DNA of 64,000 nt from an uncultured Thermoleophilia bacterium (GTDB lineage: Bacteria; Actinomycetota; Thermoleophilia; UBA2241), in NCBI GenBank assembly GCA_963808735.1, contig CAWEHE010000016.1:131028-195027 (forward strand), read 5' to 3'. Under the pieces are notes generated by a model. The model was given only the letters and a program-made list of their open reading frames with translations, was not told where the DNA came from and did no database searches. Below, piece after piece: positions 3,165 to 63,253 of this stretch (positions within the stretch are counted from its first letter, which is position 1; each line of letters opens with the position of its first letter). A program made the translations under genes and the position numbers.

Positions 3165-4350
3165 TCAGCTCGTCCGGCACAGGTGGAGCAGGTCCGCGTA
3201 GACGCCGTAGGCGGTCTGCGGCACCAGCCCGTGCCGCTCGCTCACGAGGACGTCGGCCATCAGGTCGGTGTGCAGCACGGCGCCGAGGGACTCGCCGGTG
3301 AGGGCCGCGAGCGGGTGCTCGATGTCGAGGTCCTCGGCGCGCAGCCGGGCGCGGACGGGGCCGGCGGGCGCAGCCGCCCCGGCCTCCGGGTGCCACGTCA
3401 TCGAGCGGCTCGCGCCACACGCTCGTCACCAGCCGCAGGCGCCGGCCGCCGGCGCGGGCGCGCGCGATGCGCTCGAGCGGGACGTCCGTCAGGCGCTCGC
3501 GCTCCACGTCCGCCGGCGTGATGCCGGCATCCATGGCGACGTTGGCGAGCGCGGCCGCCTTGCTCGCCGCGTCCCAGCCGTCCACGTCGTTGGACGGATC
3601 CGCCTCCGCGTAGCCCTCCGCCTGGACCTGCGCCAGGGCGTCGTCGAAGCTGCGGCCGGCGCCCATCGCGTCGATGATGAAGTTGGTCGTGGCGTTGAAG
3701 ACGGCATCGAAGCCGAGGAGCGTGCAGTCCGGGAGCGCGTACTCGAGAAGGCTGAAGACCGGGAGCCCGTCCATCACGGTGCTCTCGAAGCGGATGCGGC
3801 GGCCGCTCGCGGCGGCTGCCGCCGCCACCTCCGGCCAGCTCCAGGCGATCGGCCCCTTGTTGGCGGTGACCACGTCCATGCCGAGGCGGAACGCCTCGAG
3901 GACGTGGCCGGTGGCCGCCGGCGTGTACGCCGTCGCGCCGGCGGCGACGCCCGAGAGGTCGCCCATCACGGTGAGCTCGACGAGCACGTCCGCGCCGGAG
4001 GCGGCGAGGAGCTCGGGGGCCGGCCGGGCCGCCTGCGGCGGGGCCGGCGCGTCAACCACCGCGGCGAGGACCTGGGCCGGGGTCATGCCCGCCGGCTCGA
4101 GCAGGCTGCCGTGACGCGTGCCCGCCGCAGTGATCAGGACGCGCAGGCCGTGACGCTCCGCGAGTACGCCCTCCTGAGCCGCCAGCAGCTCGCAGAGCGA
4201 GCGCGCGACGCTGCCAAAGCCGAGCAGGCAGAGGCGCACCTCGCGCAGCCCCGCCGAAGGCTCCTCGGAGCCGAAGAGGGAGAGCCGGACGTCGCGGGGG
4301 GCGCCGGCCGGCGTTGCCGCGCCGGCGGGCCTGGCGGATCCGGCGCTCAC
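3165..4350 (-). pseudogene. hom: Homoserine dehydrogenase with an apparent frameshift near 3360-3380 (may be a sequencing indel)
   Basis: The N-terminal 310 residues (LCLLGFGSVARSL..ANKGPIA..DVDGWDAASKAAALANVA) are in the frame of ORF 1996..4350. The conserved C-terminal catalytic region (EHPLAALTGESLGAVLHTDLMADVLVSERHGLVPQTAYGVYADLL) is in the frame of ORF 3165..3401. Confidence 0.7.
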
Positions 4351-5618
4351 CGCACCGACCGCGAGAGGTCGCCGACGGCGGCCACGAGACGATCGAGCTC
4401 GCCCTCCGTGGTGTACGGGGCGAGCCCCACGCGCACCAGACCGCCGCGACCCTGCAGCCCGAGCAGCTCCACGAGGCGCTGGGCGTAGAAGTCGCCGTCC
4501 CAGGTGAAGAGGCCGCGCGCGCCGAGGGAGCGGCAGACCTCGCCGGCCTGGAAGCCGTCGATGGTGAACGACACCGTGGAGGTGCGCGGGCTGCCCTCCG
4601 GTGGCCCGTAGAGCCTGACGCCGGCGATGCCGGCGAGCCGCTCGCGCAGCCGCTTCGCGAGCGGCTGCTCGTAGGCCTCGCCGGCCAGCATGCCGGCGAC
4701 GACCGCCCGGCGCCGGCCCTGCAGGCCGGCGGGGAGGCGGTCCTCCACCATCGCCAGGTGCCGGTCGCCGAGGTCGGCGATGAAGTCGATCGCGGCGGTC
4801 GTGCCCGCCATGCCTTCATGATTGAGCGTGCCGGTCTCCCACACGAAGGGCGGATCGGGCTCCTGCGTGCTCAGCCGGACCGGGTCGAGCAGCTCGGTGG
4901 CCTCACGGCGGGCGTACATGAGCCCGACATGCGGGCCGAAGAACTTGTACGCGGAGCAGAGCAGGAAGTCGCAGCCGATGGCCCTGACGTCGATCGGCCC
5001 GTGCAGCGCGTAGTGCACGGCGTCGACGACGCTGAGCGCGCCCGCCTCGCGGGCCAGCGCGGCCGCGCGCGCGACGTCGTTGACCGTGCCGACGGCGTTC
5101 GAGGCGTAGCCGACGGCGACCACCCTGGTCTTGCCGGGCTCGACGAGCTTCTCGAAGGCGTCCCAGTCGAGGGTGCACGTCTCGAGGTCGACGGGCACCT
5201 CGCGGATGACGGCGCCGCGCTCGGCGAGCCGCAGCCACGGGCCCCGGTTGGCCTCGTGATCGAGCTGGGTGACCACCACTTCGTCGCCCGGCCGGATGTC
5301 GCGGGCGATCGCATCGCTCAGCAGGAAGCCGAGCGTGGTCATGTTGGCGCCGAAGCTGACCTCCTCCCAGTGGCAGCCGAGCAGGTCGGCGCCCGCCTCG
5401 TGCGCTCCCTGCACGACGGCGTCGGTCTCTTCGGAGGTCACGAAGGCGCCGTGGATGTTGCAGTTGTGGTTCACCAGGTAGTCGAGCACGGCGTCGAGCA
5501 CGCGCTGCGGCGTCTGCGTGCCGCCGGGACCGTCGAGGTAGGCGGCGGGATGCCCGTCGACCGTCCGCCTGAGGGCGGGGAACTGGCTGCGGACGTACGC
5601 GACGTCGAACTGGGGCAT
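4347..5618 (-). CDS. Class-V aminotransferase-fold PLP enzyme, cysteine desulfurase/selenocysteine lyase-like
   Basis: ORF 4347..5618 carries the SufS/CsdA-like motifs TTLGFLL, DHEANRGPW, DFLLCSAYKFFGPHVG (PLP lysine region) and a C-terminal GARG. Confidence 0.75.
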   Translation of the reverse strand: MPQFDVAYVRSQFPALRRTVDGHPAAYLDGPGGTQTPQRVLDAVLDYLVNHNCNIHGAFVTSEETDAVVQGAHEAGADLLGCHWEEVSFGANMTTLGFLLSDAIARDIRPGDEVVVTQLDHEANRGPWLRLAERGAVIREVPVDLETCTLDWDAFEKLVEPGKTRVVAVGYASNAVGTVNDVARAAALAREAGALSVVDAVHYALHGPIDVRAIGCDFLLCSAYKFFGPHVGLMYARREATELLDPVRLSTQEPDPPFVWETGTLNHEGMAGTTAAIDFIADLGDRHLAMVEDRLPAGLQGRRRAVVAGMLAGEAYEQPLAKRLRERLAGIAGVRLYGPPEGSPRTSTVSFTIDGFQAGEVCRSLGARGLFTWDGDFYAQRLVELLGLQGRGGLVRVGLAPYTTEGELDRLVAAVGDLSRSVR

Positions 5619-5704
5619 GGCTCACCTCGGGCCGGCTCGTGGCAGGGAGACCAGTGTACCGTCCCCGTGCAGGAAAGGCGCGCGTAGGGCAGGATGGTAG
5701 GACG

Positions 5705-8700
5705 ATGCGGACCAGCGGCGACAGAGCGACGGCGAAACCGGAGGCGGACGCGCACGGGCAGAAGCGCGAAGACTCGCTGCAGCGCGCGCTCGAACGCGAG
5801 TTCCCGGTCATCTGCTTCGCCTGGGACGGCACCGCCGTGGCGCGTCGCGACGCCGACGCGACGGCGGTCCGCGGCCGCGTGGAGCGGCTCACGGCGCTGG
5901 GCGTCGATATCGCCGTCGTGAGCAGCGCGCCCGTGGCCGAGGTCGACGCCCAGCTCGGCGCCCGCCCGGGCGTCGAGGGCCGGTTGTTCCTCTTTCTCTC
6001 GCGCGGCTCCGAGGTCTACGTCGTCGGCCCGTCCGGCCCGCGCCTGCTCGAGCGACGCCAGGCGACGCCGCTGGAGCAGGAGCAGCTGATCGCGACCGCG
6101 GCGGCGCTGCACGACCGGCTGGCCGCGGCCGGGCTCGATGTGGCGACCGTTCACGACCGCCTCAACCGGCGGTCGGTCGACCTCATCCCGGAGTGGCGCG
6201 AGCCGCCGGGCGCTGACGTCACGGAGCTCCGGAGCCGGGTCGACGAGCGCCTGCGAGGGGCCGGCCTCGGCGGACTGCGCGACTGCATCGAGCTGGCTCG
6301 CGAGCTCGCTCTGGACGCCGGCCTCGCGCACGTGGTCGTCACCAGCGACATCCGGCACATCGACATCGGCCTCACCGGCAAGAGCGACACGATGCGCGCG
6401 ATGATGCGGGCGCTCATCACGGGGCGCCGACGCCGGCCGCAGGACCTCCTGGTGCTTGGGGACACGTTCGGCGCCGTCAGTGACGGTGAGGGCACCGACG
6501 CCCCGATGCTGATCCCCGAGCTGCGCCGCGCGGTGTACGTCAGCGTCGGCGCCGAACCCAACGGGGTGCCGCCGGGAGTGCTTCTGGCCGGCGGCGGCCC
6601 GGTCGGGTTCCTCGACATCCTGCACGACCAGCTGGCGGCGCGGGAGATCGTGGCGCAGCGCAGCTTCCCCGAGCCCACCCTCGAAGCCGCCTGGCGCTTC
6701 GAGGTCAAGGGGTTCGACCCGTTCCGCGAGCGCGAGGTCGAGACCTGGCTCACGGTCGCGAACGGCGAGACGGGGACGCGCGGCGCCCTCGAGGAGGGCT
6801 CGGCGGTCTCCACGCCGGCCACCTTCGTCGCCGGCGTCTACGGCGACGGGACCGACGACCCGCCCTTCCGTCAACCCGTCCCCGCGCCCGACTGGACCGG
6901 GCTCCGGCTGATGGTCGGCGGCAGCGCGCTGAACCTGGCCAACGGCGAGATCATCGAGCACGACCGCGTGCTCGACATGCGCCACGGCGTCGTCTTCCGC
7001 ACCTGGCGGCAGCGCCTGCGCGGCGGCCGCACCGTGCGCGTGCGCACGGCCCGCTTCGCCTCGCTGGCCGACCGTCAGATCATGGCGGCCCGGGCCGAGG
7101 CGACGCCCGAGGACTTCTCGGGCTCCCTGGTGTGGCAGAGCGCCATCGGGGTGACGCACGCCGGAGGACCGACGAAGGAGACGGAGTTCGAGGCGCTCGA
7201 GGACCCGCCCGGGCTGATCGCGCGCACGCGCGGCCGCAACGGCGGCGGGCACGTGCTCGCGGTGACGACCAACCCGGCGCCCGGGTCGCCCGTGGCGCGC
7301 ACGCCGCAGCAGGCGCGCGACGTGATCGGCGGGCGCCTCGAGGCGGGCGACCCGGCCACCGTGGACCGGCTGGCGGCGATCGTCTCGGCGCGTACGCGGG
7401 CGCCCTCGTCGGAGACCGCGCGCCGCGCCCTCGCGCGGGCGGTGGAGACCGGGTACGACGAACTGCTGCGGCGGCACCGGGCGGCGTGGGACGCCGCCTG
7501 GCAGGCCGCCGACGTGCGCATCGACGGCGACGCCGACGATCAGCATGCGCTGCGCTTCGCCATCTACCACATGATCAGCACGGCGCACCCCGACAAGGAC
7601 ACCGTCTCGGTCGGCGCTCGCGGCCTCGGCGGCATGTCCTACTTCCTGCACGTCTTCTGGGACACCGAGATCTTCGTCCTGCCGTTCTACATCTACACGC
7701 AGCCGGAGACGGCGCGCACGCTGCTCACCTACCGCTACCGCAACCTCCCGGGGGCCCTGCAGAAGGCCGAGCACATGGGCCACCGCGGCGCGCTGTACCC
7801 GTGGGAGTCCGCCGATAGGGGCGTCGAGACCACCCCGCCGTACGGCTACGGACCCGCCGGCGAGAAGATCCCCATCCTCTCCGGCCTGATGGAGCACCAC
7901 ATCTCCGCCGACGTCGCCTGGGGCGCCTGGGAGTACTGGAAGGCGACCGGCGACGACGAGTTCATGGCGAGCATGGGCGTCGAGATGCTGCTCGAGACGG
8001 CGCGCTTCTGGGTCTCTCGCGCCAGCGTCGACGTCGAGGGCCGGTACCACGTGCGCCTGGTCGTCGGACCGGACGAGTATCACGAGGGCGTCGACGACAA
8101 CGCCTTCACCAACGTGCTCGCGCGCTGGAACATCAAGCGCGCGCTCGACGCGCTGGCGTGGCTCGAGGAGACCGATGGAGCCGGTGCCGGGGAGCTGACG
8201 GAGCGCCTCGGCATGACCGCCGAGGAGCTCGCCGGCTGGCCCGGCGTGATCGCCGGCTACGTGGACGGGTTCGACCCGGAGACGCTGCTCTACGAGCAGT
8301 TCGCCGGGTTCTACGACCTGGACGACGTGCCCATCGAGAAGATCCGTCCGCGTCCGATGCCCGCCGACCTGCTGCTCGGCCGCGACGTGACGCTCGTCAG
8401 CAAGGTGGTCAAGCAGGCCGACGTGGTCATGCTCTGCCACGTCCTCGCCGACGAGATCGACGAGACGACGACGCGGGCCAACTACGACTACTACGAGCCG
8501 ATCACCTGCCACGGCAGCTCGCTGAGTCCCGGCATCCACGCCGCCGTGGCGGCGCGGCTGCACGACGTGCCGGAGGCCACCGAGTACTTCAAGATGGCCG
8601 CGGCCATCGACCTCGCCGACAACATGGGCAACGCGGCCGCCGGCCTGCACATGGCCACCATGGGTGGCCTCTGGCAGGCGGCCGTCATGGGCTTCTGCGG

Positions 8701-8959
8701 CGTCATGCGCCGCGGCGAGGCGCTGCGCCTCGACCCGCAGCTGCCGAAGGCCTGGAAGCGGGTGCGCCTGCCGCTCCGCTTCCGCGGCGCGCACCTGAGC
8801 CTCGACCTCCGTCGCCGGAGGGCCGGCGTGGAGGTGGGTATAACCGTGGAGAAGGCGCCGGTCACCTTGCTGCTGGACGGAGAGGAGCGCGCGTTCCGTC
8901 CCGGCACGTATCGTCTGCGGCGCCCCGACGGGGAGGCCTGGCAGGTGAGCGCCGAATGA
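5705..8959 (+). CDS. Fusion protein: N-terminal HAD-like (trehalose-phosphatase-like) domain plus glycoside hydrolase family 65 phosphorylase (OtsB1-like architecture)
   Basis: Lies within ORF 5639..8959. The HAD motif is ICFAWDGTAV. The GH65 core reads YHMISTAHPDKDTVSVGARGLGGMSYFLHVFWDTEIFVLPFY...ALYPWESA. The start is taken at M23 (5705) because 5639 would leave only 20 bp to the divergent gene. Confidence 0.75.
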   Translation: MRTSGDRATAKPEADAHGQKREDSLQRALEREFPVICFAWDGTAVARRDADATAVRGRVERLTALGVDIAVVSSAPVAEVDAQLGARPGVEGRLFLFLSRGSEVYVVGPSGPRLLERRQATPLEQEQLIATAAALHDRLAAAGLDVATVHDRLNRRSVDLIPEWREPPGADVTELRSRVDERLRGAGLGGLRDCIELARELALDAGLAHVVVTSDIRHIDIGLTGKSDTMRAMMRALITGRRRRPQDLLVLGDTFGAVSDGEGTDAPMLIPELRRAVYVSVGAEPNGVPPGVLLAGGGPVGFLDILHDQLAAREIVAQRSFPEPTLEAAWRFEVKGFDPFREREVETWLTVANGETGTRGALEEGSAVSTPATFVAGVYGDGTDDPPFRQPVPAPDWTGLRLMVGGSALNLANGEIIEHDRVLDMRHGVVFRTWRQRLRGGRTVRVRTARFASLADRQIMAARAEATPEDFSGSLVWQSAIGVTHAGGPTKETEFEALEDPPGLIARTRGRNGGGHVLAVTTNPAPGSPVARTPQQARDVIGGRLEAGDPATVDRLAAIVSARTRAPSSETARRALARAVETGYDELLRRHRAAWDAAWQAADVRIDGDADDQHALRFAIYHMISTAHPDKDTVSVGARGLGGMSYFLHVFWDTEIFVLPFYIYTQPETARTLLTYRYRNLPGALQKAEHMGHRGALYPWESADRGVETTPPYGYGPAGEKIPILSGLMEHHISADVAWGAWEYWKATGDDEFMASMGVEMLLETARFWVSRASVDVEGRYHVRLVVGPDEYHEGVDDNAFTNVLARWNIKRALDALAWLEETDGAGAGELTERLGMTAEELAGWPGVIAGYVDGFDPETLLYEQFAGFYDLDDVPIEKIRPRPMPADLLLGRDVTLVSKVVKQADVVMLCHVLADEIDETTTRANYDYYEPITCHGSSLSPGIHAAVAARLHDVPEATEYFKMAAAIDLADNMGNAAAGLHMATMGGLWQAAVMGFCGVMRRGEALRLDPQLPKAWKRVRLPLRFRGAHLSLDLRRRRAGVEVGITVEKAPVTLLLDGEERAFRPGTYRLRRPDGEAWQVSAE

Positions 8960-9753
8960 CTCTTCTCATCGCCGTCGCCGACGCGGCCGCCGACAGAGAG
9001 CTCGTCAGCTCGGCGCGCGCGCTCGCGGCCGCCGCGCGCTGGGACGTGCGCGCCGTGCACGTCCGCGAGCCGGGCCTGCCGGAGCCGGCCAGCGCCGAGC
9101 TCGAGGACCTCGACCTGACGGCCGTCGACGGCGATCCCGTCGAGGCGCTCGCCCGGCTCGTCCAGGGGGCGGGCGTGGACGCCGTCGCTTTCGGCCACCG
9201 CTGTTCGGACGGCCCGGCCTGCGAGCCGGGCCTGGGCCACGTCGCCGAGGCGCTCCTCAACGGCCACGTGGCCCCCGTGCTGCTCGTCCGCCCGGGCATG
9301 CGCCCGGTCGCGGGCCTCAAGCGCCTCTACGTCCCGCTCGAGGGCAGCCCGTCCACATCCTCCGCGATGCGGGCCGCGGACGACGCCCTGTGCGCCCGCG
9401 GCCGTGAGATCGTCATGCTCCACGTCGTCACCGGCGACACGCCGCAGGAGACCGGCAGCCTGCCGGTGCCGCGCATCATGGACCAGGAGCACTACGAGTG
9501 GGGGGCCTGGCAGGACGAGTTCACGATGCGCTTCTCGCAGTGCCCGCGGGGCGGCCGGCACCGCGTCGCCGTGCGCGTCGGCGACCCGGCCGGCATCATC
9601 GCCGAGGAGGCCGGCGCAAGCGCCGCCGAGCTGATCGTGCTCTCGTGGAACGGGAGCTTCGAGAGCGGTCACGGCGCCGTGATCAAGGAGCTTCTGGACA
9701 CGGCGCCTTGCCCGCTCTTCCTCGTCCCCAGCGGCGTACCCGACGCCGTCTGA
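8956..9753 (+). CDS. Universal stress protein, tandem UspA domains
   Basis: The ATG overlaps the GH65 stop (ATGA). The sequence shows two USP-like halves (MTLLIAVADAAAD...; VMLHVVTGD...LIVLSWNGS). Confidence 0.7.
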   Translation: MTLLIAVADAAADRELVSSARALAAAARWDVRAVHVREPGLPEPASAELEDLDLTAVDGDPVEALARLVQGAGVDAVAFGHRCSDGPACEPGLGHVAEALLNGHVAPVLLVRPGMRPVAGLKRLYVPLEGSPSTSSAMRAADDALCARGREIVMLHVVTGDTPQETGSLPVPRIMDQEHYEWGAWQDEFTMRFSQCPRGGRHRVAVRVGDPAGIIAEEAGASAAELIVLSWNGSFESGHGAVIKELLDTAPCPLFLVPSGVPDAV

Positions 9754-9835
9754 GGCCGACGCGGCCGCCCTGCTTCTCCCGGCCGCCGTCTGAGAGGCCG
9801 CCCGCCCGGAGCCGGCCCCGGGGGCATCAAGTGCG

Positions 9836-9916
9836 CATACAGAGGCGCCGGCGTCCCGTAGAGATTCCGTCAGGACTCCCGACGCATCCCTTCGGGCCGG
9901 CTACGCTCGAGGCATG
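9836..9916 (+). promoter_or_regulatory. Leader/promoter element copy 1 (internal direct repeats tacaga...tagaga about 21 nt apart, then ttccgtcaggac, ending at ctcgaggcATGgtcgac)
   Basis: An approximately 75-nt block is highly similar to the block immediately upstream of the kdp leader ORF at 10410-10492. Confidence 0.35.
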
Positions 9917-10000
9917 GTCGACCCACTGCTCATCCCGCCGGGTGCCGGCTCCTGCCCCACAGGGCTCACTCGTCGACCGTCCGCGAGGGCGCCGAAATGA
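9914..10000 (+). CDS. Putative 28-aa upstream ORF, translationally coupled (ATGA) to the 119-aa ORF
   Basis: It starts at the ATG embedded in the conserved leader element. Its stop overlaps the ATG at 9997. Confidence 0.2.
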   Translation: MVDPLLIPPGAGSCPTGLTRRPSARAPK

Positions 10001-10356
10001 CGACCGCCTTCGCGATCCTCGCCCTCTTCGGGGTATCCGCCTCGACCGCGTGGCTGTGTCGGCTGAGCCTGCGGTCCATCACCTCCGCGGCGGCTCCGCC
10101 GATCAGCAGTGTGCTCAGGGAACACGCTCCAGCCCTCCTCGCCCTTCATGGCGTCCGTCACGTCGGGCTGGGCGAGTCCGGGGGGCTGCCGTACATCGTC
10201 GTCGTCACAGACGCGCTCACCGAGGACGAGGCGTCGCGCATACCGACCAGACTGGGTTGCTGGAGGGTACGCCGACGGACCATATGCGATCCGCGCGCAG
10301 CGGCAGGGCGGCCGATCCCGTCGCCGACCGATGAGGCTCGCTGCCTGCAGCGATGA
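9997..10356 (+). CDS. Hypothetical protein (119 aa)
   Basis: It is a track ORF with strong GC3 bias over the first two thirds and no recognisable family. Confidence 0.3.
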   Translation: MTTAFAILALFGVSASTAWLCRLSLRSITSAAAPPISSVLREHAPALLALHGVRHVGLGESGGLPYIVVVTDALTEDEASRIPTRLGCWRVRRRTICDPRAAAGRPIPSPTDEARCLQR

Positions 10357-10409
10357 ACTGGCGGGCGGGTAGCTGTCGAGAGCCGGCCGCGCCGGACTCT
10401 CGTCAAGCG

Positions 10410-10492
10410 CCCGTAGAAAGCAGCGGGATCGGCGTACAGATTCCGTAAGGACCCCCGCCGGGGCCGTCGGGGAGCGGTACCGTCGAGGCATG
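10410..10492 (+). promoter_or_regulatory. Leader/promoter element copy 2 upstream of kdp (direct repeats cgtagaa...cgtacaga, then ttccgtaaggac, ending at gtcgaggcATGctcgac); candidate response-regulator (KdpE-type) binding site
   Basis: It is a paralog of the 9836-9916 element and precedes the kdpF-kdpA leader ORF. Confidence 0.35.
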
Positions 10493-10612
10493 CTCGACGT
10501 GCTCTTCATAGCGCTCGCCATCGGCTTCTTCGTGGTCGCCGACCTCTTCGTGCGCGGTTGCGCACGGATCCTCGAGCGGGGCCACGACGACCTTCGGGGG
10601 GACCGGTCGTGA
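10490..10612 (+). CDS. Small hydrophobic leader peptide (40 aa, MLDVLFIALAIGFFVVADLF...) upstream of kdpF
   Basis: It has a single predicted TM helix. Its stop overlaps the kdpF GTG (GTGA). Confidence 0.35.
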   Translation: MLDVLFIALAIGFFVVADLFVRGCARILERGHDDLRGDRS

Positions 10613-10701
10613 CCGCCGCCGACGTCGTCTTCTTCGTCATCATCGCGGCGCTGCTCGCGTACCTCGCCTGGGCGCTCATCGCGCCCGAGGACCTGCAGTG
10701 A
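10609..10701 (+). CDS. kdpF: Potassium-transporting ATPase subunit KdpF
   Basis: The 30-aa peptide VTAADVVFFVIIAALLAYLAWALIAPEDLQ matches the KdpF length and pattern and lies directly upstream of kdpA. Confidence 0.6.
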   Translation: MTAADVVFFVIIAALLAYLAWALIAPEDLQ

Positions 10702-10723
10702 CCGCGCCGGCCGGAGACGCACG

Positions 10724-12398
10724 ATGACCGCCGCCGCATGGCTCCAGATCGCCGCCCTGGTCGGGCTGCTGCTGCTCGGGACGCGGCTGCTCGGCCCGTA
10801 CCTCGCCAAAGTCTACGGCGGTGGCGCCGCGCCCGGCGACCGCGTGTTCCTGCCGCTCGAGCGGCTGATCTACCGTGTCGGCCGCATAGCTCCCGACCAG
10901 GAGCAGTCCTGGGTCGTGTACGCGCGCTCGGTCATCGCCTTGAGCCTGGTGTCGGTGCTTGGTTTGTACGCCCTGGAGCGCCTCCAGGGCTGGCTGCCGC
11001 TCAACCCATCGGCGGTGGAGTCGGTCCCGCCGTTCCTCGCCTTCAACACCGCCGTGAGCTTCGTCACCAACACGAACTGGCAGAACTACGGCGGCGAATC
11101 GACGATGAGCAACCTGACGCAGATGACCGGGCTCACCGTGCAGAACTTCGCCTCGGCCGCGGTCGGCATGGCGGTCGCCGTCGCCCTGATCCGCGGCTTC
11201 ACGCGCCATCGGGCGGAGACGATCGGCAACTTCTGGGTCGACCTCACAAGGGGCGTGACCCGCGTTCTGCTCCCGCTGGCGCTGGTCCTGGCCGTCGTGC
11301 TCGCCGGCCTCGGTGTCGTGCAGACGCTGCGGGGCCCCGTGGACGCGACCACGGTGGAGGGCGCGACCCAGACGATCTACCGCGGGCCCGATCGCGAGCC
11401 AGGAGTCGATCAAGGAGCTGGGGACGAACGGCGGCGGCGTCGTCAACGCCAACTCGGCGCATCCGTTCGAGAACCCGACCGGCCTCACCAACTTCCTCGA
11501 GATCCTGGCCCTGCTCGTCATCCCCTTCGCGCTCACCTACGCCTTCGGACGCCTGGTCCGCGACCAGCGCCAGGGCTGGGCGATCTTCTTCGCCATGTTC
11601 GCGCTGTGGGCCGGGTCCGCGGCGACGGCGACGTACTTCGAGGTGCGCGGCAACCCGCGCGTCGAGGTCGCCGCCGTCAACATGGAGGGCAAGGAGGTGC
11701 GCTTCGGGGCCGCGACGTCGGCGCTCTTCGCGGCCTCGACCACGGGGACCTCGTCCGGCGCCGTGGACGCCTCGCACGACAGCTTCACGCCCGGCGGCGG
11801 GGCCGTGCCGCTCGTCAACATGCTGCTCGGCGAGGTCTCGCCGGGCGGCGTGGGGGCCGGCCTGTACGGCATGCTGATCTTCGTTCTGCTCGCCGTGTTC
11901 ATCTCCGGCCTCATGGTCGGGCGCACGCCCGAGTACCTCGGCAAGAAGATCCAGGCGGCGGAGATGAAGCTCGTCGTCCTGTACCTGCTGGTCGTCCCGA
12001 TCCTGGTCCTCGTGCTCGCCGGCGTGTCCGTGGTGTTCGGGCCGGCGAAGGAGTCGATCCTCAACCCCGGCCCGCACGGGCTGAGCGAGGTCGTCTACGC
12101 CTTCGCCTCCCAGGCCAACAACAACGGGTCGGCCTTCGCCGGTCTCGACCGGCAACACCGACTGGTACAACACGACCGGCGCGCTCGCCATGCTCGCCGG
12201 CAGGTTCTTCCTGATCGTCCCGGTGCTGGCCATCGCCGGCTCGCTGGCGCGCAAGCAGACGGTGCCCCCCAGCGCCGGGACCCTGCCCACCCACAGCCCA
12301 CTCTTCGTGGTCATGCTGCTCGCGGTGATCGTGATCGTCGTCGGGCTGACCTACTTCCCCGTGCTCGCGCTCGGGCCGATCGTGGAGCAGCTGGCGCT

Positions 12399-12402
<4 letters not shown>
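10724..12402 (+). pseudogene. kdpA: Potassium-transporting ATPase subunit A KdpA, two apparent frameshifts (about 11390 and about 12144)
   Basis: The KdpA sequence is split over three track ORFs and frames: 10724.. (MTAAAWLQIAALVG...TIYRGP), 11313.. ([30 protein letters not shown]...NNNGSAFAG) and 12190..12402 ([23 protein letters not shown]...). Confidence 0.85.
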
Positions 12403-14408
<2,006 letters not shown>

Positions 14409-14412
<4 letters not shown>

Positions 14413-21462: not shown

Positions 21463-22762
21463 ATGATGGCCGAGGGTCCATCGTCTCGCATCGGGGGTCA
21501 CGTGCGCTCAGCGCGCCGCTTCTCCACCTTTCCACGTGCCGTCCTGGTCGCCGCCGCGGTCGCGGCGCTCTGCCTCGCGGCCGCCGCCTGCGGCCTCCGC
21601 CTGGGCTCCTCGGACGAGGATCCGCGGGCCGATCAGGCGAGGACCCTGGAGCTCGCCCGCGACGGCTTCGCCCGCGCCGCCGACGCGCTGCGCGCCGGAG
21701 ACCGCGAGGGCTTCATCCAGGGGTTCGCGGCCGGAGGGGACGGGCCGGCGGCGGAGCAGGCACGCGACGGTCTCGCCCAGGTGTTCGACACGCTGGCGCC
21801 GCTGCCGTGGCGGACGTTCTCCTTCGCGGTCACGCCGGTCGACCCGGGGGCCGACGTCTACCGGGTCCGGGGCATCGGGCAGCTCGGCGCTGCGGGTCCG
21901 GAGGACAGGATCGCCGTGGTGCGGTATCTCCGGCTGCGGGGCGCGCCCGACGGCGTCGTCGTGCTGGCGGACGAGACGCCGGAGGATCTCCGGCGCCGGT
22001 ACCTGATGGCGCTGCACGATCCCATCGTGCTGCAGCGCCCCGGGCTCCTCGTCCTCGCCGATCGCCGGTCGCGCAGCCGCGCGGCGATCGTGCTGGCCGC
22101 GGCCGAGAAGGCGCGCCCGCGGCTCGCCGCCCTGGGCGTGAGCACCCGCCCCACCGTCGTCATCACCGTGTTCGGCTCCGCGGAGGATGTGCGCGCCGCC
22201 CTGGCTACGAAGGCCGAAACCGCGCGCCTTGCCTTCTTCTCCTATCCCGCGCTCCGTGTCGACGAGGATTCCTGGCCGACCTACGACGTCGGCGTCATGG
22301 GCCCCTGGTTGCGCGACGCGGGCGTGTCCATGGAGGACGTGCTCACGCACGAGCTCGCCCACGCCTACACCATCCGCTGGTTCTCCGGCGACGACGAGCC
22401 CCCGTCGTTGCTCGTGGAGGGGATCGCCCAGGCCGCGGAGGGCTCCGCCTCCGGCTCCGCACTGCGGCAGGAGGTGGCGACCGGCGACCAACTCTGGCCG
22501 CTGCCCGAGTCGTTCGGGGTGGGCGACGTGTGGGACGGCGGCGACGGCGCGGCCGTGAGCTTGGGCTACGACATCGGCGGCTCGCTCGTGAGCGTACGTC
22601 GCCGCGCGCTGGGGAGCGGACGAGGTGCGGCCCTTCGCCCAGGCCGTGGCGGCCGCCGAGCCGACCGTCGCCGGCATGGATGAGGCGCTCGACGAGGCGC
22701 TCGGCGTCACCTGGCTCGACTTCTTCGCCGGCTGGCGGCGGTACGTGCTCGCCGGCAGCTAA
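21463..22762 (+). pseudogene. Membrane/lipid-anchored HExxH-motif protein, paralog 1 (putative zinc metallopeptidase-like); apparent +1 frameshift near 22591
   Basis: It has a signal-like N-terminus (RAVLVAAAVAALCLAAAACG) and the motif THELAHAYTIRWF. The C-terminal 57 residues (YVAARWGADEV...FFAGWRRYVLAGS) sit in another frame and align to the C-terminus of the downstream paralog. Confidence 0.6.
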
Positions 22763-22844
22763 GCGCGGCGCGTCTCTGTCCCGCGAGCTGACGACGTCTC
22801 GTCCGTCCGCGCCTCGCTCCCGGGCCGCGCCGTACAATGGTCCC

Positions 22845-25588: not shown

Positions 25589-25589
25589 T

Positions 25590-37577: not shown

Positions 37578-37774
37578 CCGCGCCCCTGCCCCGTCGTTCG
37601 ACTCCACCAGGCCTCCCGGATCGTGGACCGCGGCAAGCCTACCGCATGCCGGCGCCGGCAGGGCCTGCGCGGGCGCCCGCGAGTACGCCGCCGCGCGAGT
37701 CCTGGCAGGAGTACGCCAGGTCGCGCCCGGGGTAGAGTCCGGCCGCAAGAAGAGGACCTACAAGAGGAGTACCG

Positions 37775-46600: not shown

Positions 46601-46979
46601 GCAGACGGGCGACGGCGCCCTCGACGATCTTGCTCGCCTTGACCTGCGCGCGCTCGGGCTCGTGCGCGTGCACGTAGGAGCAACCCTCGCGGATGTTGCC
46701 GAAGGCCACGGAGTTCTCGCCCAGCTTGAGCTCGCGCGCGATGCGCTCGAAGGTCGGGCCCTGGAAGCGCGGCGAGCACGAGGCGATGACGAAGTGGTCG
46801 AGGCCGCGCTCTTCCACGGCCTTCTCGATCATCGCGCGGCCCTCGGTGCCGCACATGAACTGGTTGACGTTCACCTCGACGACGCCGTCCAGCGCGCGCA
46901 CGTGCTCGGCGAGCGGCTCGAGGTCGATCACGCCGCTGATGTTGCCGCCGCACTGGCAGAGGAAGACTCCGGCCCTCAT
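43633..46979 (-). pseudogene. Giant HdrA-like flavoprotein with inserted GltD/NfnB-like NAD(P)H-binding module; two apparent +1 frameshifts near 45623 and 45505
   Basis: The sequence is split over three frames. Frame 1: MRAGVFLCQCGGNISG..., FAD motif, GltD-like CGRICTHVCE, FAD-2 site VAIVGGGPAGL...KTGHAL. Frame 2: GSDFTVDSLFADGYKAVFLATG. Frame 3: LRAVEFL...VVVVGGGDVAYD, the HdrA core, CCLFATLHS and two terminal ferredoxin clusters. Confidence 0.75.
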
Positions 46980-47941
46980 CCCACGACCTCCATGCTGCGG
47001 GCGCCGATGCGCTCGAGGAAGGGCTCGACATCCTGGGAGTGCGTCTGGACGCCGACGATCTTCTCGGGGTCGGCGCCCATCGCCAGCGCCAGGAGCTGCT
47101 GCACGTGCAGGTGCACGAACGGGTACTCCTCGCCGAATCCCGCGGAGATGATGTCGCTGAAGCGGTCGAACTGGATGTGGCAGTTGGGGCACATGTGCAC
47201 GAGCACGTCGACCTTCTCCTCGGCCAGCCGGTGCAGCTTCTTCTGCGTCACCCCGACCGAGATCGACGGGTTGACGAAGCGGTTGCGGAAGCCGGCCCCG
47301 CAGTGGGTCTGCTTCTCGTTGTAGGCGCCGGTGCAGGTGACGCCGGCGGGGATGAGCATCTCCTCCGGCACCATGAAGTTCTCGTTGTTGCCCAGGGTCT
47401 CGTCGGGGAAGACCTTGCAGTAGTGGCAGGCGGGGTGGGTGGCCACCTTGATGCCGTCGAGGCGACGGCGGATGAGCTCCGGCACGCTGTCGTGGGCGCC
47501 CCACAGGATCTCGAGGGTGTGCTTGTGCTGGACGGTGCCGGCGATGCGGTCGTCGTACTCGCGGCCGATCTTGCCGAGCACGTCGTTGGTCTCCGCGCGG
47601 TAGCCGGGGACGTCGAGGATGTTGCGCGCCTTCTTGTTGATCGCGTAGCAGGTGGAGCAGAGGTAGCTCATCACGGGGTGCTCGTCGTCGACGACGACGC
47701 AGGCGTTGCGCGCGGCGATGCCGACGGTGGTCTGGATCGGCATGAGGTCGGAGTAGTAGCCGAGGCCGGTGCAGCACGTCTGGTCCTCGTTGACGGTGTA
47801 CTCGATGCCGAAGCGCTCGAAGAGCCACTTGGTCGACGACTCGACGCCCGGGTACTCGGCCGAGACCAGGCAGCTGCGGAACAGCGTGACGCCCTTCTCG
47901 ATGCGCGGCACGTCGGGAGTTGAAGTGTAGCGTTTGCCCAT
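46976..47941 (-). CDS. Heterodisulfide reductase subunit B-like (two CCG domains)
   Basis: The motifs are CCTGLG and CPNCH. An AT-richer promoter region lies upstream at 47990-48330. The start is M1 or M14. Confidence 0.7.
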   Translation of the reverse strand: MGKRYTSTPDVPRIEKGVTLFRSCLVSAEYPGVESSTKWLFERFGIEYTVNEDQTCCTGLGYYSDLMPIQTTVGIAARNACVVVDDEHPVMSYLCSTCYAINKKARNILDVPGYRAETNDVLGKIGREYDDRIAGTVQHKHTLEILWGAHDSVPELIRRRLDGIKVATHPACHYCKVFPDETLGNNENFMVPEEMLIPAGVTCTGAYNEKQTHCGAGFRNRFVNPSISVGVTQKKLHRLAEEKVDVLVHMCPNCHIQFDRFSDIISAGFGEEYPFVHLHVQQLLALAMGADPEKIVGVQTHSQDVEPFLERIGARSMEVVG

Positions 47942-48329
47942 GGTCCCCTCGCGGTAGCTGACGACTCGGCTATTGTCCATAAGAAATGCTGTTCCTGCAA
48001 ATCAGCTTGGCTTATAGATGGCGTGAGGGTGATAAGCGGGCGTCCAGCCGGACGATTCAGGCGCCTTCAGTCTGATGCGCGAGCGCGCGAGGCGGCCGGT
48101 CGCCGGCGCCACGCCGCAGGCCGGGAGTCTCTCACATGCCCTGTCACCGTCCTGCGTCGAGGAGGTACGGAGCGCCGCGGGCCGAGACCAACAGGCGTCG
48201 CTTCACGTGGCGACACCAGGTGCATGCGGGCGCGTTACAGGGGACCCGATTCAGGGGAGGAATCTAGTACCAGCACCGGTGTCGTGGCCCCCGCTCCGGA
48301 GGCCGCAGCCGCCTCGAGGGGAGGGCTCA

Positions 48330-58603: not shown

Positions 58604-58886
58604 CGCGTTCCTCGCTCGTCTCGTACGGTAGGAGGCGCGGCGGGATCCTGCGTCTCGCCGCGCCTCCGGGTGCTGCCCGGTCTCGGGGGGTCTCGAGTCG
58701 CCGGGCGCACGGCTTCAGGAACTGCCGGCCCCGCGCCGGCGGACGTCACGTCCCGCCGCTTCCATTGCGCTAGCTACCCCACCGGGGGTCGCGGCAATCG
58801 TCGCTGGGGGGCCGCGGGAGCGGCGGGCGACGAAGGAAGGGGTCGGCCGCCGGTGGCCGGAAGAGCCGCCGGCGGCCGACCCGGAC

Positions 58887-61274
58887 TCACTTGACGGTGA
58901 TCGTGAACGACCGAGAGGTCGTGGCGGCGCAGAGATCGCTGCCCGAGAACTTGACGCGCAGCGTGTGCGTGCCCTTGGGCAGGCTCGTGGCTCCCTCGCC
59001 ATCCTTGATCTTCACGGTCTTGTAGCTCACCCAGCGGCCGCTCTTGTTGAGCTGCAGCTTGGCCGTGCCGCTGGCGTCGCCCGGCCTCACGTGGACGGTG
59101 AGCTTGGACGCCCCGGACAGCCAGATCTGGGCGCTGACCTTGACGTCAGCCGAGGCGCTGCCCGGCAGCTCGTTCGCGGTCGCCTCGGTACGGGCGATGA
59201 GCTCGGCGTTCTTCGTGAGCCCCGGCACGACCTTCCTGAAGTACGCGTAGCCCCGCTTGGCCGTGGCCTTCACCTTGCCGACGAGCACCGGCGCCGCCGC
59301 GTCGACGTTCTGGCGGTAGATGCTCACCTGGAGGTCCTTGGAGCTGCGCACCATGCCGATGAGCTGCGTGGCGCCGCCGTAGGCGACCTTGGCCGGACGA
59401 GCCTGGACCATGACCTGTGCGGTCCTCTTGGAGAAGTAGCTGTCGAAGACGTAGCTCGTCGGTACCGTGACCTCGACGCCGGTCGGCTCCCCTTCATCCC
59501 CACTGTCGGAGCTGCCACCGTTGGGTTCGAAGGAGACCAGCAGATCGCTGTTCTTCGGTTGGGCGTTGAGGCTCTCCACCACGTCGGCGAGCGTCCGCGG
59601 CGCGCCGCCGCCGCCATCGCCGTCGCCGCAGCCGCAGCAACTGCACCAGCCGCCTCCCCACTGGTCCCAGCTGGCGGGCGTGACGGTGAGGCGTCCGTAC
59701 AGCGACATGCCCTTGGGGATCGTCAGCGTGCCCTCGACGGTCTGAGGGGTCGCGGACCCGTACCGGTAGTAGACGATGCGCACGAGGTTGTCGCCCACCT
59801 TGATGCCGTCGGGCAGCGTGACGTCCTCGATGCGCGCCGACAGCTGCGTCGCGGACACGTCGGCGACGACGTCGACGGACTCGATGCGCGGCTGGAGGAC
59901 CCCGTCGGGGTTGGCCGCGAGCTGCATCAGGGCCTGGGCCGCGTCCCTGCCGGCCTGGTAGGACACATCCCATGAGCTGGTCCAGAGGTTCTCGCGCTGC
60001 ACGGTGTAGGTCCCCGTGGCGTCGGAGACGACCACGGTGGTCTTCGTCGTCGCGCTGCCGGGGATGCTCGACTGATCCGCGGCACGGTAGACGAGCTCGC
60101 CGACGATGTCGCCGGGCAGAGTCGGGTAGGCGCCGGAGGAGACCAGCCACTCGCTGGCGCCCGACTCGTCCTGCATCGAGACGGCGCGGTCGACGAGGTT
60201 GACCGTGGTGGTCACCGGGAAGACGTCGGGGGTCTGGCCGAGATGAGCCTCGACACCCCAGTTGCGGTCCTGCACGCAGGTGCCCTTGACGTCGCGTGGG
60301 GCGATGAGCTTGTACGGCGTGTTGCTGCTGGCCCAGACGCCCTCCACGTAGCCGCCGGTGAGCGCCGCGTCGATCGCGCCGAACTGCTCGAACGGGTGGC
60401 CGAAGAGCATCGCCGCGTCGTCGTCGACGTAGGTGACGGTGCCGGCGGCGCCGACCCACACGGCGCCCTGCGAGAAGAGGATGGCGCAGGGCGACCCGGC
60501 CTCGAGGGTCGGGACAGGCGCGCCGGCCCACTCACCGCTGCCGCTCGCCGCCTTGACCAGCAGACCGCTCTTGGCGAACTTGGCGGCGATCCGGTCGAAC
60601 GCCTTGCTGCCCGGCCGGGCGCCGCCGATCTCGAGGATGCCGAGCGGCGCCATCACCGTCTGGCCGCTCGCGGCCTCGACCTTGGCGGCGGCCTTGGCGC
60701 TGCGGGCGACGACGACGCTGCGGACCACGCCGCCGCCGGTCTCTACGGGCTCGTCGAGCGCGTAGGTGCCGGCCGAAGGCGGCCGCGGGGCCTCGATGGA
60801 CGCCAGCGCGCCGACGGGGTAGTTCTCCTCGATCGCCGCCATGTACTCGATCGGTGTGGCGAGGCCCATGCCGTTGAGCGTGAACCAGTCGCCGTAGGAG
60901 AGGGCGCCGATGAGCTTGTCGGTGCCGGCGTCGTCGATGTAGACGGGGCTGCCGCTCATGCCGGCGGCGATGCCGCCGATCCTGTCGATCTGCGGTCCGG
61001 TGGCCTCGAAGAGGATCAGCGTGCCCCAGGAGTAGTCGACGAGGCTCTCCACAGTCACCGGGATCTCCTCCGGCGTGGTGCCTCTCATGGTGGTGAGCAG
61101 GTGGCCGCTGAGCGGCCCGGACTCGAGCGCTGCGGCCAGCTGTTCGAGATCCATCGTCGGCTCCGGTGGCGCCGCCGCGGCCGTCTGGGCGAGCGCCAGC
61201 AGCAGCACGATGGCGAGCAACAACGGGATGAACAGCGCCGTCCGCTTCACGGCTCGGCAAGACAGAAACGCCAT
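58887..61274 (-). CDS. Secreted S55 (SpoIVB-like) peptidase-domain protein with C-terminal Ig-like domains
   Basis: It has a signal peptide (MAFLSCRAVKRTALFIPLLLAIVLLLALAQTAAA), a GMSGSPVYIDD serine motif, a CSCCGCGDGDGG stretch and a beta-rich C-terminus. Confidence 0.6.
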   Translation of the reverse strand: MAFLSCRAVKRTALFIPLLLAIVLLLALAQTAAAAPPEPTMDLEQLAAALESGPLSGHLLTTMRGTTPEEIPVTVESLVDYSWGTLILFEATGPQIDRIGGIAAGMSGSPVYIDDAGTDKLIGALSYGDWFTLNGMGLATPIEYMAAIEENYPVGALASIEAPRPPSAGTYALDEPVETGGGVVRSVVVARSAKAAAKVEAASGQTVMAPLGILEIGGARPGSKAFDRIAAKFAKSGLLVKAASGSGEWAGAPVPTLEAGSPCAILFSQGAVWVGAAGTVTYVDDDAAMLFGHPFEQFGAIDAALTGGYVEGVWASSNTPYKLIAPRDVKGTCVQDRNWGVEAHLGQTPDVFPVTTTVNLVDRAVSMQDESGASEWLVSSGAYPTLPGDIVGELVYRAADQSSIPGSATTKTTVVVSDATGTYTVQRENLWTSSWDVSYQAGRDAAQALMQLAANPDGVLQPRIESVDVVADVSATQLSARIEDVTLPDGIKVGDNLVRIVYYRYGSATPQTVEGTLTIPKGMSLYGRLTVTPASWDQWGGGWCSCCGCGDGDGGGGAPRTLADVVESLNAQPKNSDLLVSFEPNGGSSDSGDEGEPTGVEVTVPTSYVFDSYFSKRTAQVMVQARPAKVAYGGATQLIGMVRSSKDLQVSIYRQNVDAAAPVLVGKVKATAKRGYAYFRKVVPGLTKNAELIARTEATANELPGSASADVKVSAQIWLSGASKLTVHVRPGDASGTAKLQLNKSGRWVSYKTVKIKDGEGATSLPKGTHTLRVKFSGSDLCAATTSRSFTITVK

Positions 61275-61443
61275 GGCCCCTCCAAACGTCCCCGTACGGC
61301 GGCTAGGCACCGCCGTTCCACGCACAAGCGTACACCCTGTGGGAAGAGGGGGCGGGCGCCGGTGGCCGACATGGCCACCGGCGCCCGCCCCGGGCTGCTC
61401 GCGCCGATCTCGTCCCCGGCGGGCGCTGGTCAGGCCGGCTTCG

Positions 61444-63253
61444 TCAGAGCGGCTTCACCTTGCGCGCCTGGCTGGTGGCGTCCCAGGTCGTGCCGCTGCC
61501 GGTGGAGCGCAGCCGGAACGTCGTGGTCTTGTTCAGCGTGTACTTGAACGTCACCGGCGTGGCCGTCGCCGCGGCGACCTTCACCGTCTTCGTGGCGACG
61601 GTCTTCCAGCCACCCGACGAGGTCTGGGTCTGCAGCTTGACGGCGCGGTCGCCGGCGGACCCGGTCGTGATCTTGCCGTTCAGCGTGAGCTTCTTGCCTG
61701 CCTGGACGCGCGTGGGGGCGGCGAGCGAGAGCTTCGCCGGGTCCTTCACGGTCACCTGCAGCGACGTCGTGCGCTTGCCGGAGCACGCGGCCGGGTCGGC
61801 GGGGTTGTTGACGAGGTCGCCGTCGGCGCAGGTCAGCTCGACCGCGTAGGTGCCCGCGGCCGCGTAGACGTAGGAGAGCTGCGCCGCCGCGGCCGGCATC
61901 GCGTGGTTGCCGTCACCGGTCCACCACTCGTACGTGTTGGCCGACGCGTTGCCCCATCCGGTCAGAGCCGAGGCGTCGAAGACGACGGGGGAGCCGGTCG
62001 TGGGGCGCTCGGTGGTCGTCACGAAGCCGGGGTCGTAGGTCGCGGCCGTGCGCCGGAGCTTTGCTTCCTCACCCTTGATGAGGTCGAGGTCCTGGTTGAC
62101 CTCCGACCAGCCGAACCAGTGGCTGTAGTCGGGGTTGATGTGGTAGGCGCCCTTGAACGTGCTCACGTGGTCGTACTTGTAGGTGTAGAAGAAGAGCTGC
62201 TCGATCGCCGAGGTGCCGCCGTAGAGCTGCTGGCCGCCGAGCACGAGGTTCTGCCCGAAGATGGGGTTCGCGGGGCGGTTCGACGGCATGGGATCGAGCA
62301 GCTTGTCCCACCAGAGGCCGCGGATGCGCATGACGGGATCCCAGAGCAGGGAGTCGACGTCGGCCTTGATGGCGTCGGCGCCCTCCAGGTTGTTGCGCGC
62401 GAACCCCCGCGCGTGGCAGTCCCCGCAGAGCGCGACCATCTTGTCGCGCCTCTGGTCGAACTCCCCGGGCGTGATAGTGCGCATCGGCACGGGGAGAGCG
62501 ACGCCCGGCAGGCGGGCGCCCTGGGCCACCGTCCCGATGGTGATGTTGGTCGAGACGTCGTGCGTGAGCGGTTGGCCCGCGCCGTTCTCCATGGTGGGCA
62601 TGTGGCAGGTCACGCACGACGGGGCACGGTTCGGGTCGCCGCCCGCGCGATCCCTCTCGGTGCCGTAGACGACGCCGTGCTTGCTCTTCTCCCACATGTC
62701 GATCTGCTCGTGGTCGGGGCCCATGTGGCAGGTACCGCACGCCGGCGGCTCCATGGCCTCCTCGGCGGAGAAGACGTGGCGCGTGTGGCAGCTGTCGCAC
62801 TTGCCGACAGAGCCGTCGGCGGCGATCTCGCCGATGTTGTGGCAGCGCTCGCACATCTCGTAGCGCTGGGCCTCGGGCATGACCTTGTAGCGCGCCGAGG
62901 CGGTCATGCGCGTCCAGCCCTGGGCGTGCTTGTTGATGTAGGCGCCGGAGGCGTCCTTGGCGGCGAACTCGTGATACTGGTCGGGGTGGCAGCCCGCCTG
63001 GGCGCAGGTGCTGGCGGGCACCTGACCCTGTGCGGCGCTCGATGGCCGCGTGATCGGCGCCGTGGCAGGTGACGCACGTGACCCCGGCGCCCGACATGGC
63101 GCCCTTGTCGTACTGAGAGACCAGGCCGGGCTGAAGCGCCGTGTGACACTGGAGGCACTGGGCCTGCGTGTACACGTCCGCCACGGCGGGCGACGCTCCG
63201 GCCAGGCCGAGCACAACGAGCGCCAAGGCGAGCAACAGGACGGATCTTCTCAT
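61444..63253 (-). pseudogene. Secreted octaheme c-type cytochrome (HAO/ONR-like multihaem family) with two C-terminal PKD/Ig-like domains; apparent +1 frameshift near 63037
   Basis: The signal peptide and first two CxxCH motifs (CLQCH, CVTCH) are in ORF 62069..63253. Six further haem motifs (CAQAGCH, CERCH, CDSCH, CGTCH, CVTCH, CGDCH) and the PKD-like WTGDGN region are in ORF 61444..63216. Confidence 0.7.

Follow-up and report, generated by a model that had tools for sequence, protein, structure and literature searches.

An uncultured Thermoleophilia bacterium is the source of a 64,000-nucleotide stretch of DNA (72% GC; the whole stretch is referred to below as the window). The window contains nine genes, among them hom, kdpA and kdpB, in which the reading frame changes within an otherwise conserved protein. 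The question raised by this locus is whether the organism has lost these genes or whether the interruptions arose while its sequence was being assembled.

Relatives and Methods of Comparison

The window is closest to Microflora Danica (MFD) metagenome-assembled genomes (MAGs) and to ENA contigs whose names follow the Flye pattern. The best match among genome representatives is at 90% amino acid identity, and the same species is absent there. The MFD MAGs are Nanopore-only, were assembled with Flye followed by a single Medaka round, and were screened by their authors for Nanopore-associated errors (PMC12313526). Three near-identical contigs were used, namely L153 (96.7% DNA identity, covering positions 1–14244 of the window), L149 (JGI, 95.1%), and L154 (JGI, 93.9%), as well as a JGI 66-kb contig, L155, with about 73–88% DNA identity. 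Six of the sites were compared only with more distant relatives (~73–88% identity for L155, 87–89% for the closest hdrA loci, and ~82–84% for the HExxH gene).

Changes of frame were first detected in a plot of GC content at the third codon position along the window. The continuity of each protein across the shift was then followed with Pfam profiles and with intact homologues from other contigs aligned to the window, whereas frameshifts in the kdp region of the relatives were located by tblastn junction detection. Most entries in raw blastn gap lists are compensating gap pairs or intergenic length changes; gaps were counted only if uncompensated and common to several relatives.

Frame Switches in the Window

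All eleven frame switches listed in the original prediction exist at or near the positions given there, as seen in the GC frame plot, the Pfam matches, and the homologue alignments (Table 1). The prediction that the conserved protein continues in another frame also holds, with intact homologues aligning as adjoining pieces in different frames. The positions could be refined to a few nucleotides in most cases, and the shift in hom, placed earlier at about 3370, is actually found near 3390.

Table 1. Interrupted genes of the window, with the phase changes seen in the GC frame plot (approximate) and the refined positions of the extra bases.
Gene	Coordinates	Strand	Phase change	Extra base
hom (homoserine dehydrogenase)	3165–4350	-	3400	one, ~3386–3393
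kdpA	10724–12402	+	11390; 12144	one each, 11383–11390 and 12146–12147
kdpB	12400–14412 (start approximate)	+	13355	one, 13357–13363
First HExxH (Peptidase_MA-like) paralog	21508–22762 (stop TAA 22760)	+	22590	one, 22590–22595
Zinc-type alcohol dehydrogenase (ADH)	27543–28665	+	28100	net +1, 28095–28146 (Pro/Ala/Gly-rich variable linker)
cysK-like PLP enzyme	34143–35097	+	34900	one, 34915–34922
yihY/BrkB-family membrane protein	36692–37586	-	37200	one, 37225–37227
HdrA-like flavoprotein/ferredoxin fusion, ~1,119 aa (predicted start)	43633–46991	-	45500; 45620	one each, 45504–45506 and 45631–45640
Multihaem cytochrome with PKD domain ("octaheme")	61444–63253	-	63040	one, 63026–63038 (~63038)

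Each of the eleven shifts corresponds to a net gain of one base, an outcome expected by chance about once in 1000 if there were no directional bias. The extra base had been described as a single G or C. That it is a single base holds for all eleven sites, but in at least three cases the base is apparently neither G nor C and looks like A (13358 and 34915) or T on the plus strand (near 37226). Few of the insertions are in runs of more than three bases. A methylation or other sequence motif was considered, since TCGA and GATC appeared frequent by eye, but no common motif is apparent among the ten placeable contexts of the window together with the insertion events of L153.

No further frameshifts were found in the parts of the window that can be compared with relatives. 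Additional candidates at 21427, 47937, 48593, and 49750 are weakly supported; they lie at gene boundaries and result from the use of stop-to-stop reference frames. hemE (Pfam match 5–345 of 346) is complete, as are hemH and the neighbouring genes.

Structure of the Interrupted Genes

In hom, the Pfam profile Homoserine_dh is matched over positions 1–116 in one frame and 116–173 in a second one. The intact JGI protein P0127 aligns over residues 1–320 (95.6% identity, frame -2) and 322–394 (frame -3), the latter piece being 100% identical over the 73 aa downstream of the shift. The extra base is absent from both L154 and L153, and the hom insertion is the single indel between L154 and the window over 3.1 kb.

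The KdpA profile is matched in three segments (3–213, 210–469, and 467–548), and the homologue likewise aligns in three pieces. A one-base gap is present in all of the ~19 relatives and also in the same-species contig L153, with 15 and 17 loci backing the two +1 shifts. In kdpB, the E1-E2_ATPase and Hydrolase domains lie in different frames and all relatives (~19 loci) are one base shorter than the window; the protein of locus L002 aligns in two pieces, with 93.1% identity before the shift and 94.8% after it. L153 carries an extra base of its own in kdpB, located 2 nt from that of the window and differing from it in both base and position.

The first HExxH paralog shows a one-base gap in five relatives (L002, L004, L005, L006, and L012), and the L002 homologue aligns over residues 16–403 in frame +1 and 405–459 in frame +2. 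This gene has one shift only, and the second paralog, starting with an ATG at ~22846, is intact. A second shift considered for the region 22770–22870 is accounted for by the end of the first gene and the beginning of the second, with an intergenic promoter region between them. In the ADH gene, the ADH_N and ADH_zinc_N domains are in different frames, and the intact 379-aa protein of L155 aligns over residues 1–184 (91%, frame +3) and 208–379 (94%, frame +1). A short GC-rich insertion had been considered here; instead, L002, L007, and L008 all differ from the window in length by 1 modulo 3, a net gain of one base within a linker of variable length.

The PALP profile covers cysK as 1–259 followed by 258–295, a one-base gap is seen in L091, and the intact 315-aa protein of L155 aligns over residues 1–260 and 258–314 in frames +3 and +1. 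For yihY, the BrkB profile is split into 2–106 and 105–258, with a one-base gap in L082 and L156, and the 305-aa protein of L155, also intact, aligns over residues 2–120 and 121–296 in frames -3 and -1.

The Pyr_redox_2 and Fer4 domains of the HdrA-like protein are spread over three frames. A 1431-aa stop-to-stop frame of L069 aligns as 1–767, 765–809, and 810–1431 in frames -3, -1, and -2, and both +1 shifts are backed by 29–32 metagenome loci (JGI and ENA records). The cytochrome is represented in JGI by an intact 602-aa protein, P0121, which aligns over residues 1–76 in frame -1 and 73–602 in frame -2. Its extra base is absent from L149, and the cytochrome insertion is the one coding indel found between that contig and the window over 2.6 kb. 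The public gene call for this protein on the window contig, P0001, is truncated to 525 aa and lies on a 201,606-nt contig in NCBI and ENA, and two more truncated or garbled versions (P0122 and P0123) are present on other ENA contigs.

Conservation Downstream of the Shifts

Identity after the shift equals or exceeds that before it in seven of the nine genes. The upstream and downstream values are 95.6% and 100% in hom, 93% and 95% in kdpB, 79% and 85% in the HExxH paralog, 91% and 94% in ADH, and 93% and 96% in the cytochrome; for the upstream, middle, and downstream segments they are 86%, 91%, and 94% in kdpA, and 85%, 87%, and 94% in hdrA. GC at the third codon position stays near 0.9 in the shifted frames as well. 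No nonsense codons, in-frame stops, or deletions were seen in the homologue alignments of the nine genes.

Distribution of the Lesions among Relatives

The comparison with close relatives that the original prediction had proposed gives the same result at all eleven sites: none of the relatives, of which up to 32 loci were compared at a site, has the extra base. An identical insertion is shared by none of these relatives. L153 is without the extra bases at 3390, 11387, and 12146, and yihY, cysK, and ADH are all intact in L155.

Lesions of the same kind are found at other positions in the sibling assemblies. The same kdp genes carry 4 frameshifts in L001, 5 in L019, 9 in L024, 6 in L018, and ~11 in L029, all of them MFD MAG loci. 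Over the ~7.5 kb of the shared kdp region, MFD Nanopore loci contain from 0 to 11 well-supported frameshifts, mostly +1; their positions differ from one assembly to another, and the rate goes from zero up to one per 620 nt. Within 14.2 kb, L153 and the window differ by 22 isolated one-base indels, all of them an extra base in L153. Essentially frameshift-free are L005 (SMAG, on a k141-named contig), L011, L154, L149, and L155, and such lesions are also essentially missing from the hdrA region in ~40 metagenome loci, mostly from JGI.

Origin of the Extra Bases

The frame switches are very probably consensus insertion errors of long-read metagenome assembly rather than traces of pseudogenisation. 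This explanation is favoured because the same-species and JGI relatives are without the extra bases and the sibling Nanopore MAGs are hit elsewhere. Two alternatives were originally offered, with no choice made between them. The systematic indel problem of unpolished long-read or metagenome-assembled data is strongly supported by the relatives; genuine pseudogenisation is not supported. Single extra bases would enter the consensus during assembly and split intact genes into adjacent frames, so that the nine "pseudogenes" would be products of the consensus, the organism's own genes being intact. Judging from the relatives of the window and from the contig on which P0001 is called, Nanopore reads alone most likely went into the assembly, built with Flye and then a single Medaka round. 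Some observations do not fit easily. The events are insertions, mostly outside long homopolymers, and not the homopolymer deletions usually described for Nanopore data, a bias that assembly error leaves unexplained. The insertion 2 nt away in kdpB of L153 can be read as a partial recurrence, although a chance coincidence (about 0.05) is plausible, since the error rate of L153 is high. A possible, though rather doubtful, way in which assembly might create such errors is the collapse of strain heterogeneity, with the consensus keeping both alleles of a substitution side by side. It would account for the insertion-only bias and for the non-homopolymer contexts, and at several sites (GG[G][C] at 11387, CT[C][G] at 12146, GA[A][G] at 13358, AG[C][G] at 22594, and GA[G][C] at 63038) the doubled position fits two third-codon-position alleles of the relatives. 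However, the pattern in the window is not significant, as it would be expected for about two thirds of insertions placed at random, and the rule is not general, because the one-base insertions of L153 occupy all three codon slots, several of them lying unambiguously between positions 1 and 2.

Genuine recent pseudogenisation, in which the population would truly carry eleven inactivating one-base insertions, appears very unlikely. The frameshifts are truly present in the deposited sequence, and three of them fall in the conditionally dispensable kdp operon, which would suit real decay and counts to that extent against assembly error. Nevertheless, the 64 kb would have ~16% of its genes inactivated, including the amino acid biosynthesis genes hom and cysK, and all eleven shifts would run in one direction. 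Pseudogenisation is unsupported because there is no decay (no nonsense codon, no large deletion, no drop in conservation after the shifts) and because the same indel does not recur in any independent assembly; even contigs at 94–97% identity are without the extra bases, and the same class of lesion occurs elsewhere in independent Nanopore assemblies of relatives but not in contigs of non-Nanopore style. We can speculate that the insertions are real and stem from a recent burst of insertion-biased single-base mutagenesis, caused, for example, by a replication or repair defect and inactivating about one gene in six before other kinds of decay had time to build up, in which case the lesions of the sibling MAGs would have this biological cause as well and would not be sequencing errors; this is very improbable. 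Least credible of all, to the point of being nearly negligible, is programmed recoding, by which +1 ribosomal frameshifting or transcriptional slippage would bypass real extra bases, with the proteins still being made. In its favour, the same +1 correction is needed at every event and the downstream frames are perfectly conserved, but the ten placeable sites have no common motif, neither a stop codon nor a slippery run is present at the shifts, and the original frames often continue for hundreds of codons. Moreover, relatives, including same-species contigs, encode these proteins in a single frame, and lesion positions are not conserved among the sibling assemblies.

Consequences for the Use of Such Assemblies

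If the extra bases are assembly errors, as we consider them to be, the hom, kdpFABC, cysK, yihY, ADH, HdrA-like, and multihaem cytochrome genes are almost certainly intact in the organism. The frame switches then carry very little biological weight and serve as a practical warning to users of the data. Public protein collections already hold products of the artefact, among them the 525-aa P0001, the garbled P0123, and the NadA+BrkB "fusions" P0247 and P0249. Such frameshifts would lead to too many pseudogenes being counted and would disrupt the metabolic reconstruction of the lineage, giving rise, for example, to falsely inferred Thr/Met or Cys auxotrophy or to the apparent absence of Kdp. An insertion-only, mostly non-homopolymer error profile in DNA of 72% GC may also be relevant to the polishing and benchmarking of assemblies of this type.

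Comparison with Known Systems

In bacterial prfB, the +1 shift site is conserved across species, together with its in-frame stop and a Shine-Dalgarno-like stimulator. As in prfB, one extra base must be skipped in the genes of the window for the full protein to be made, but, unlike in prfB, the sites have no common motif, no stop at the shift, and no conservation of position. In Mycobacterium leprae and in recently host-restricted symbionts, mass pseudogenisation is accompanied by nonsense mutations, deletions, and relaxed conservation, with lesions shared among isolates. The window resembles such reductive evolution in its high share of interrupted genes, housekeeping genes included, and differs from it in having neither nonsense codons nor deletions, in the mostly conserved downstream regions, and in the near-identical contigs that are without the lesions.

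Homopolymer errors in Nanopore data are described mainly as deletions. Indel errors in Nanopore-only assemblies are usually ascribed to homopolymer regions (PMC9262707). The events in the window differ from these usual errors in being all insertions, mostly outside runs of more than three bases. The window itself probably belongs to the MFD long-read MAG catalogue (PMC12313526), the source of its nearest relatives, which show the same lesions. In other respects the likeness to Nanopore-only metagenome assemblies made with Flye and Medaka is close: there, too, single-base indels split conserved genes at a rate that depends on the contig, and the errors are likewise missing where these genes come from JGI or other assemblies of non-Nanopore style.

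Frame Switches in Conserved Genes of the Window

The DNA of the window (72% GC) is so GC-rich that lists of open reading frames are uninformative, and the frames were therefore mapped by the GC content of the third codon position. In this map the coding phase switches inside a conserved gene at each of the eleven places where a frameshift had been listed from the sequence. The Pfam domains continue across the frame changes, and intact homologues on other contigs match the window piece by piece, each piece adjoining the last but in a different frame from it, establishing that the switches are real. They affect nine of the window's genes, which number about 55 by a rough count, and no further shift in the window was flagged by comparison with relatives, or by frame continuity and Pfam in the ~9 kb that have no relative to compare.

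Positions of the frame switches and of other features of the window, with the identity (%) to the closest intact homologue before / (between) / after the shift
Gene or feature	Position	Pfam across the frame change	Identity
hom	3386–3393	Homoserine_dh, profile 1–116 then 116–173	95.6 / 100
kdpA (two shifts)	11383–11390; 12146–12147	KdpA, profile 3–213, 210–469, then 467–548	86 / 91 / 94
kdpB	13357–13363	E1-E2_ATPase then Hydrolase	93 / 95
First HExxH paralog	22590–22595		79 / 85
ADH linker	28095–28146	ADH_N then ADH_zinc_N	91 / 94
cysK	34915–34922	PALP, profile 1–259 then 258–295	83 / 81
yihY	37225–37227	BrkB, profile 2–106 then 105–258	74 / 68
HdrA-like gene (two shifts)	45504–45506; 45631–45640		85 / 87 / 94
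Multihaem cytochrome	~63038		93 / 96
-10-like box, second HExxH paralog	22825–22850
Hdr-like cluster (− strand)	38429–47980
Big_3_5 gene stretch	58715–61443
Intergenic one-base length differences	61392; 63312

In seven of the nine genes the closest intact homologue is matched as well past each shift as before it; in cysK and yihY the identity is slightly lower after the shift. The third-position GC of the shifted frames is still near 0.9, and no in-frame stops or deletions were seen in the nine genes.

Several of the surrounding regions have features of their own. The second member of the HExxH (Peptidase_MA-like) pair is preceded, 6–8 nt before its ATG (~22846), by a conserved CCGTACAAT box, kept in L002, L004, L005, L006, and L012 with a remaining spacer that varies; judged from sequence, its position suggests a leaderless transcript. 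The heterodisulfide-reductase-like cluster, adjoining hemE, hemH, and hemY (48.6–52.3 kb), encodes a CCG-domain protein, a ~1,119-aa HdrA-like protein, an MvhD/FlpD protein, a small ferredoxin, a second HdrA-like protein (815 aa, with a fused FlpD domain), and two HdrC-like Fe-S proteins. The S9 peptidase and cytochrome genes are separated by a 2.7-kb stretch that codes for a protein of 812 aa whose C terminus carries a Big_3_5 domain; this stretch is missing from the otherwise syntenic loci L150, L151, and L152.

The Surplus Base and Its Absence from Close Relatives

By frame arithmetic all eleven shifts are +1, and DNA alignments show one surplus base in the window relative to every relative. 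The relatives number about 19 loci for the three kdp sites, five for the HExxH site, and 29–32 for the two hdrA sites; those for cysK and yihY are L091, L082, and L156, and that for the cytochrome is L149. In the zinc-type ADH, the shift lies inside a Pro/Ala/Gly-rich linker between the GroES-like and Rossmann domains, of which L002 has a version 40 nt shorter and L007, L008, and L155 have versions of other lengths again; the exact site cannot be placed because linker length varies in the lineage, although the length in the window differs by 1 modulo 3 from each of these four. The original description of a single extra G or C holds as to the single base, and as to its identity at most sites, the exceptions being an apparent A at 13358 and 34915 and an apparent T on the + strand near 37226. 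Most of the insertions do not lie in a homopolymer of more than three bases.

Comparison with close relatives, the check proposed at the outset, yielded near-identical contigs lacking the insertions at hom, both kdpA sites, and the cytochrome. L153 (ENA ERZ25039462, contig_3457), 96.7% identical to window 1–14244, is without the surplus bases at 3390, 11387, and 12146. The only indel that separates the JGI contig L154 (93.9%) from the window in 3.1 kb is the hom insertion, and the only coding indel that separates L149 (JGI, 95.1%) in 2.6 kb is the cytochrome insertion. At six of the eleven sites the relatives compared were all more distant (DNA identity ~73–89%), and none was of the same species; among these, a 66-kb JGI contig (L155) has intact yihY, cysK, and ADH. 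In intergenic DNA the window differs from L149 in length by one base at two points, one downstream of the cytochrome, where a run of C4 stands against C5, and one upstream of it, an extra base; either more consensus errors or natural variation could account for them.

Frameshifts in Sibling Assemblies

A KdpD search places the window among uncultured Thermoleophilia (Actinomycetota), with top matches of 84–90% amino acid identity, nearly all from Microflora Danica (MFD) MAGs. These are Nanopore-only, with Guppy super-accurate basecalling, assembly by Flye --meta --nano-hq, and one round of Medaka polishing, and the catalogue was screened by its authors for Nanopore-associated errors (PMC12313526). 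From these relatives we infer that the source assembly of the window is also long-read.

A frameshift in a relative was scored where adjoining tblastn pieces changed frame, provided that five or more other loci supported it. In the same kdp genes the MFD loci bear frameshifts of their own, mostly +1 and at unshared positions: four in L001, five in L019, nine in L024, six in L018, about 11 in L029, three in L012, and one in each of several others. No well-supported kdp junction was found in L002, L004, or L006, and no well-supported event in L005 (SMAG, k141-named contig) or L011. L153 differs from the window by 22 isolated one-base indels, all of them extra bases in L153, with the window's gene intact at every genic one; a second contig of that ENA sample, L156, shows similar fragmentation.

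Almost no frameshifts occur in ~40 metagenome loci, mostly JGI, covering the hdrA region. Three old JGI contigs depart from this, with +1 shifts (L128:1914–1919, L134:736–738, and L130:956; 18–29 supporting loci). The L134 shift corresponds to about window 47713, within the CCG-domain hdrB-like gene, and the context 'cggcatcg' precedes the shift in both L128 and L134. Either true variation in the lineage or an artefact of the dataset could explain these shifts.

Origin of the Frameshifts

The most economical reading is that the eleven shifts arose as erroneous insertions in the consensus of a long-read metagenome assembly, since they have one direction, have left no evolutionary trace, are missing from same-species and JGI contigs, and recur in sibling Nanopore assemblies as a class of lesion, not at a position. 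Of the two explanations initially offered, assembly indels and pseudogenisation, the former is supported. Genuine pseudogenisation of nine genes is not supported: the genes bear no trace of decay, and it would demand that eleven insertions, all very recent and in one direction, be confined to this assembly, and that the same process have acted separately in relatives, but solely in the Nanopore-sequenced ones. For practical purposes programmed frameshifting can be ruled out, as the sites share no motif, have no stop at the shift, and are not conserved.

Nanopore errors are more often homopolymer deletions, unlike the insertions found here. Such insertions might arise if both alleles of a strain polymorphism were retained in the consensus, with which several sites in the window agree, but this idea fails for L153, where insertions fall in all codon slots. 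At kdpB, L153 also has an extra base, a different one 2 nt from that of the window (CCGA[A]GCAG in the window, CCGAGC[G]AGCAG in L153), and dropping either bracketed base restores the same intact sequence as in L007. With L153 carrying about one insertion per 620 nt, a chance coincidence of these neighbouring insertions has a low but plausible probability; the alternative is that they may mark a local error hot spot.

Consequences for Public Sequence Data

The frame switches are confirmed in the sequence, yet they are no biological feature. From assemblies of this type, truncated and chimeric proteins are already entering public collections. The truncated cytochrome gene call of the window is public as a 525-aa protein (P0001, 100% identical, on an NCBI/ENA contig), and its 90% cluster holds two more truncated or garbled versions from ENA contigs (P0122 and P0123); among these public cytochrome products is a 310-aa version with a garbled C terminus. 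Likewise, the public NadA+BrkB 'fusions' P0247 and P0249, of 389 and 435 aa, come from frameshifted long-read contigs.
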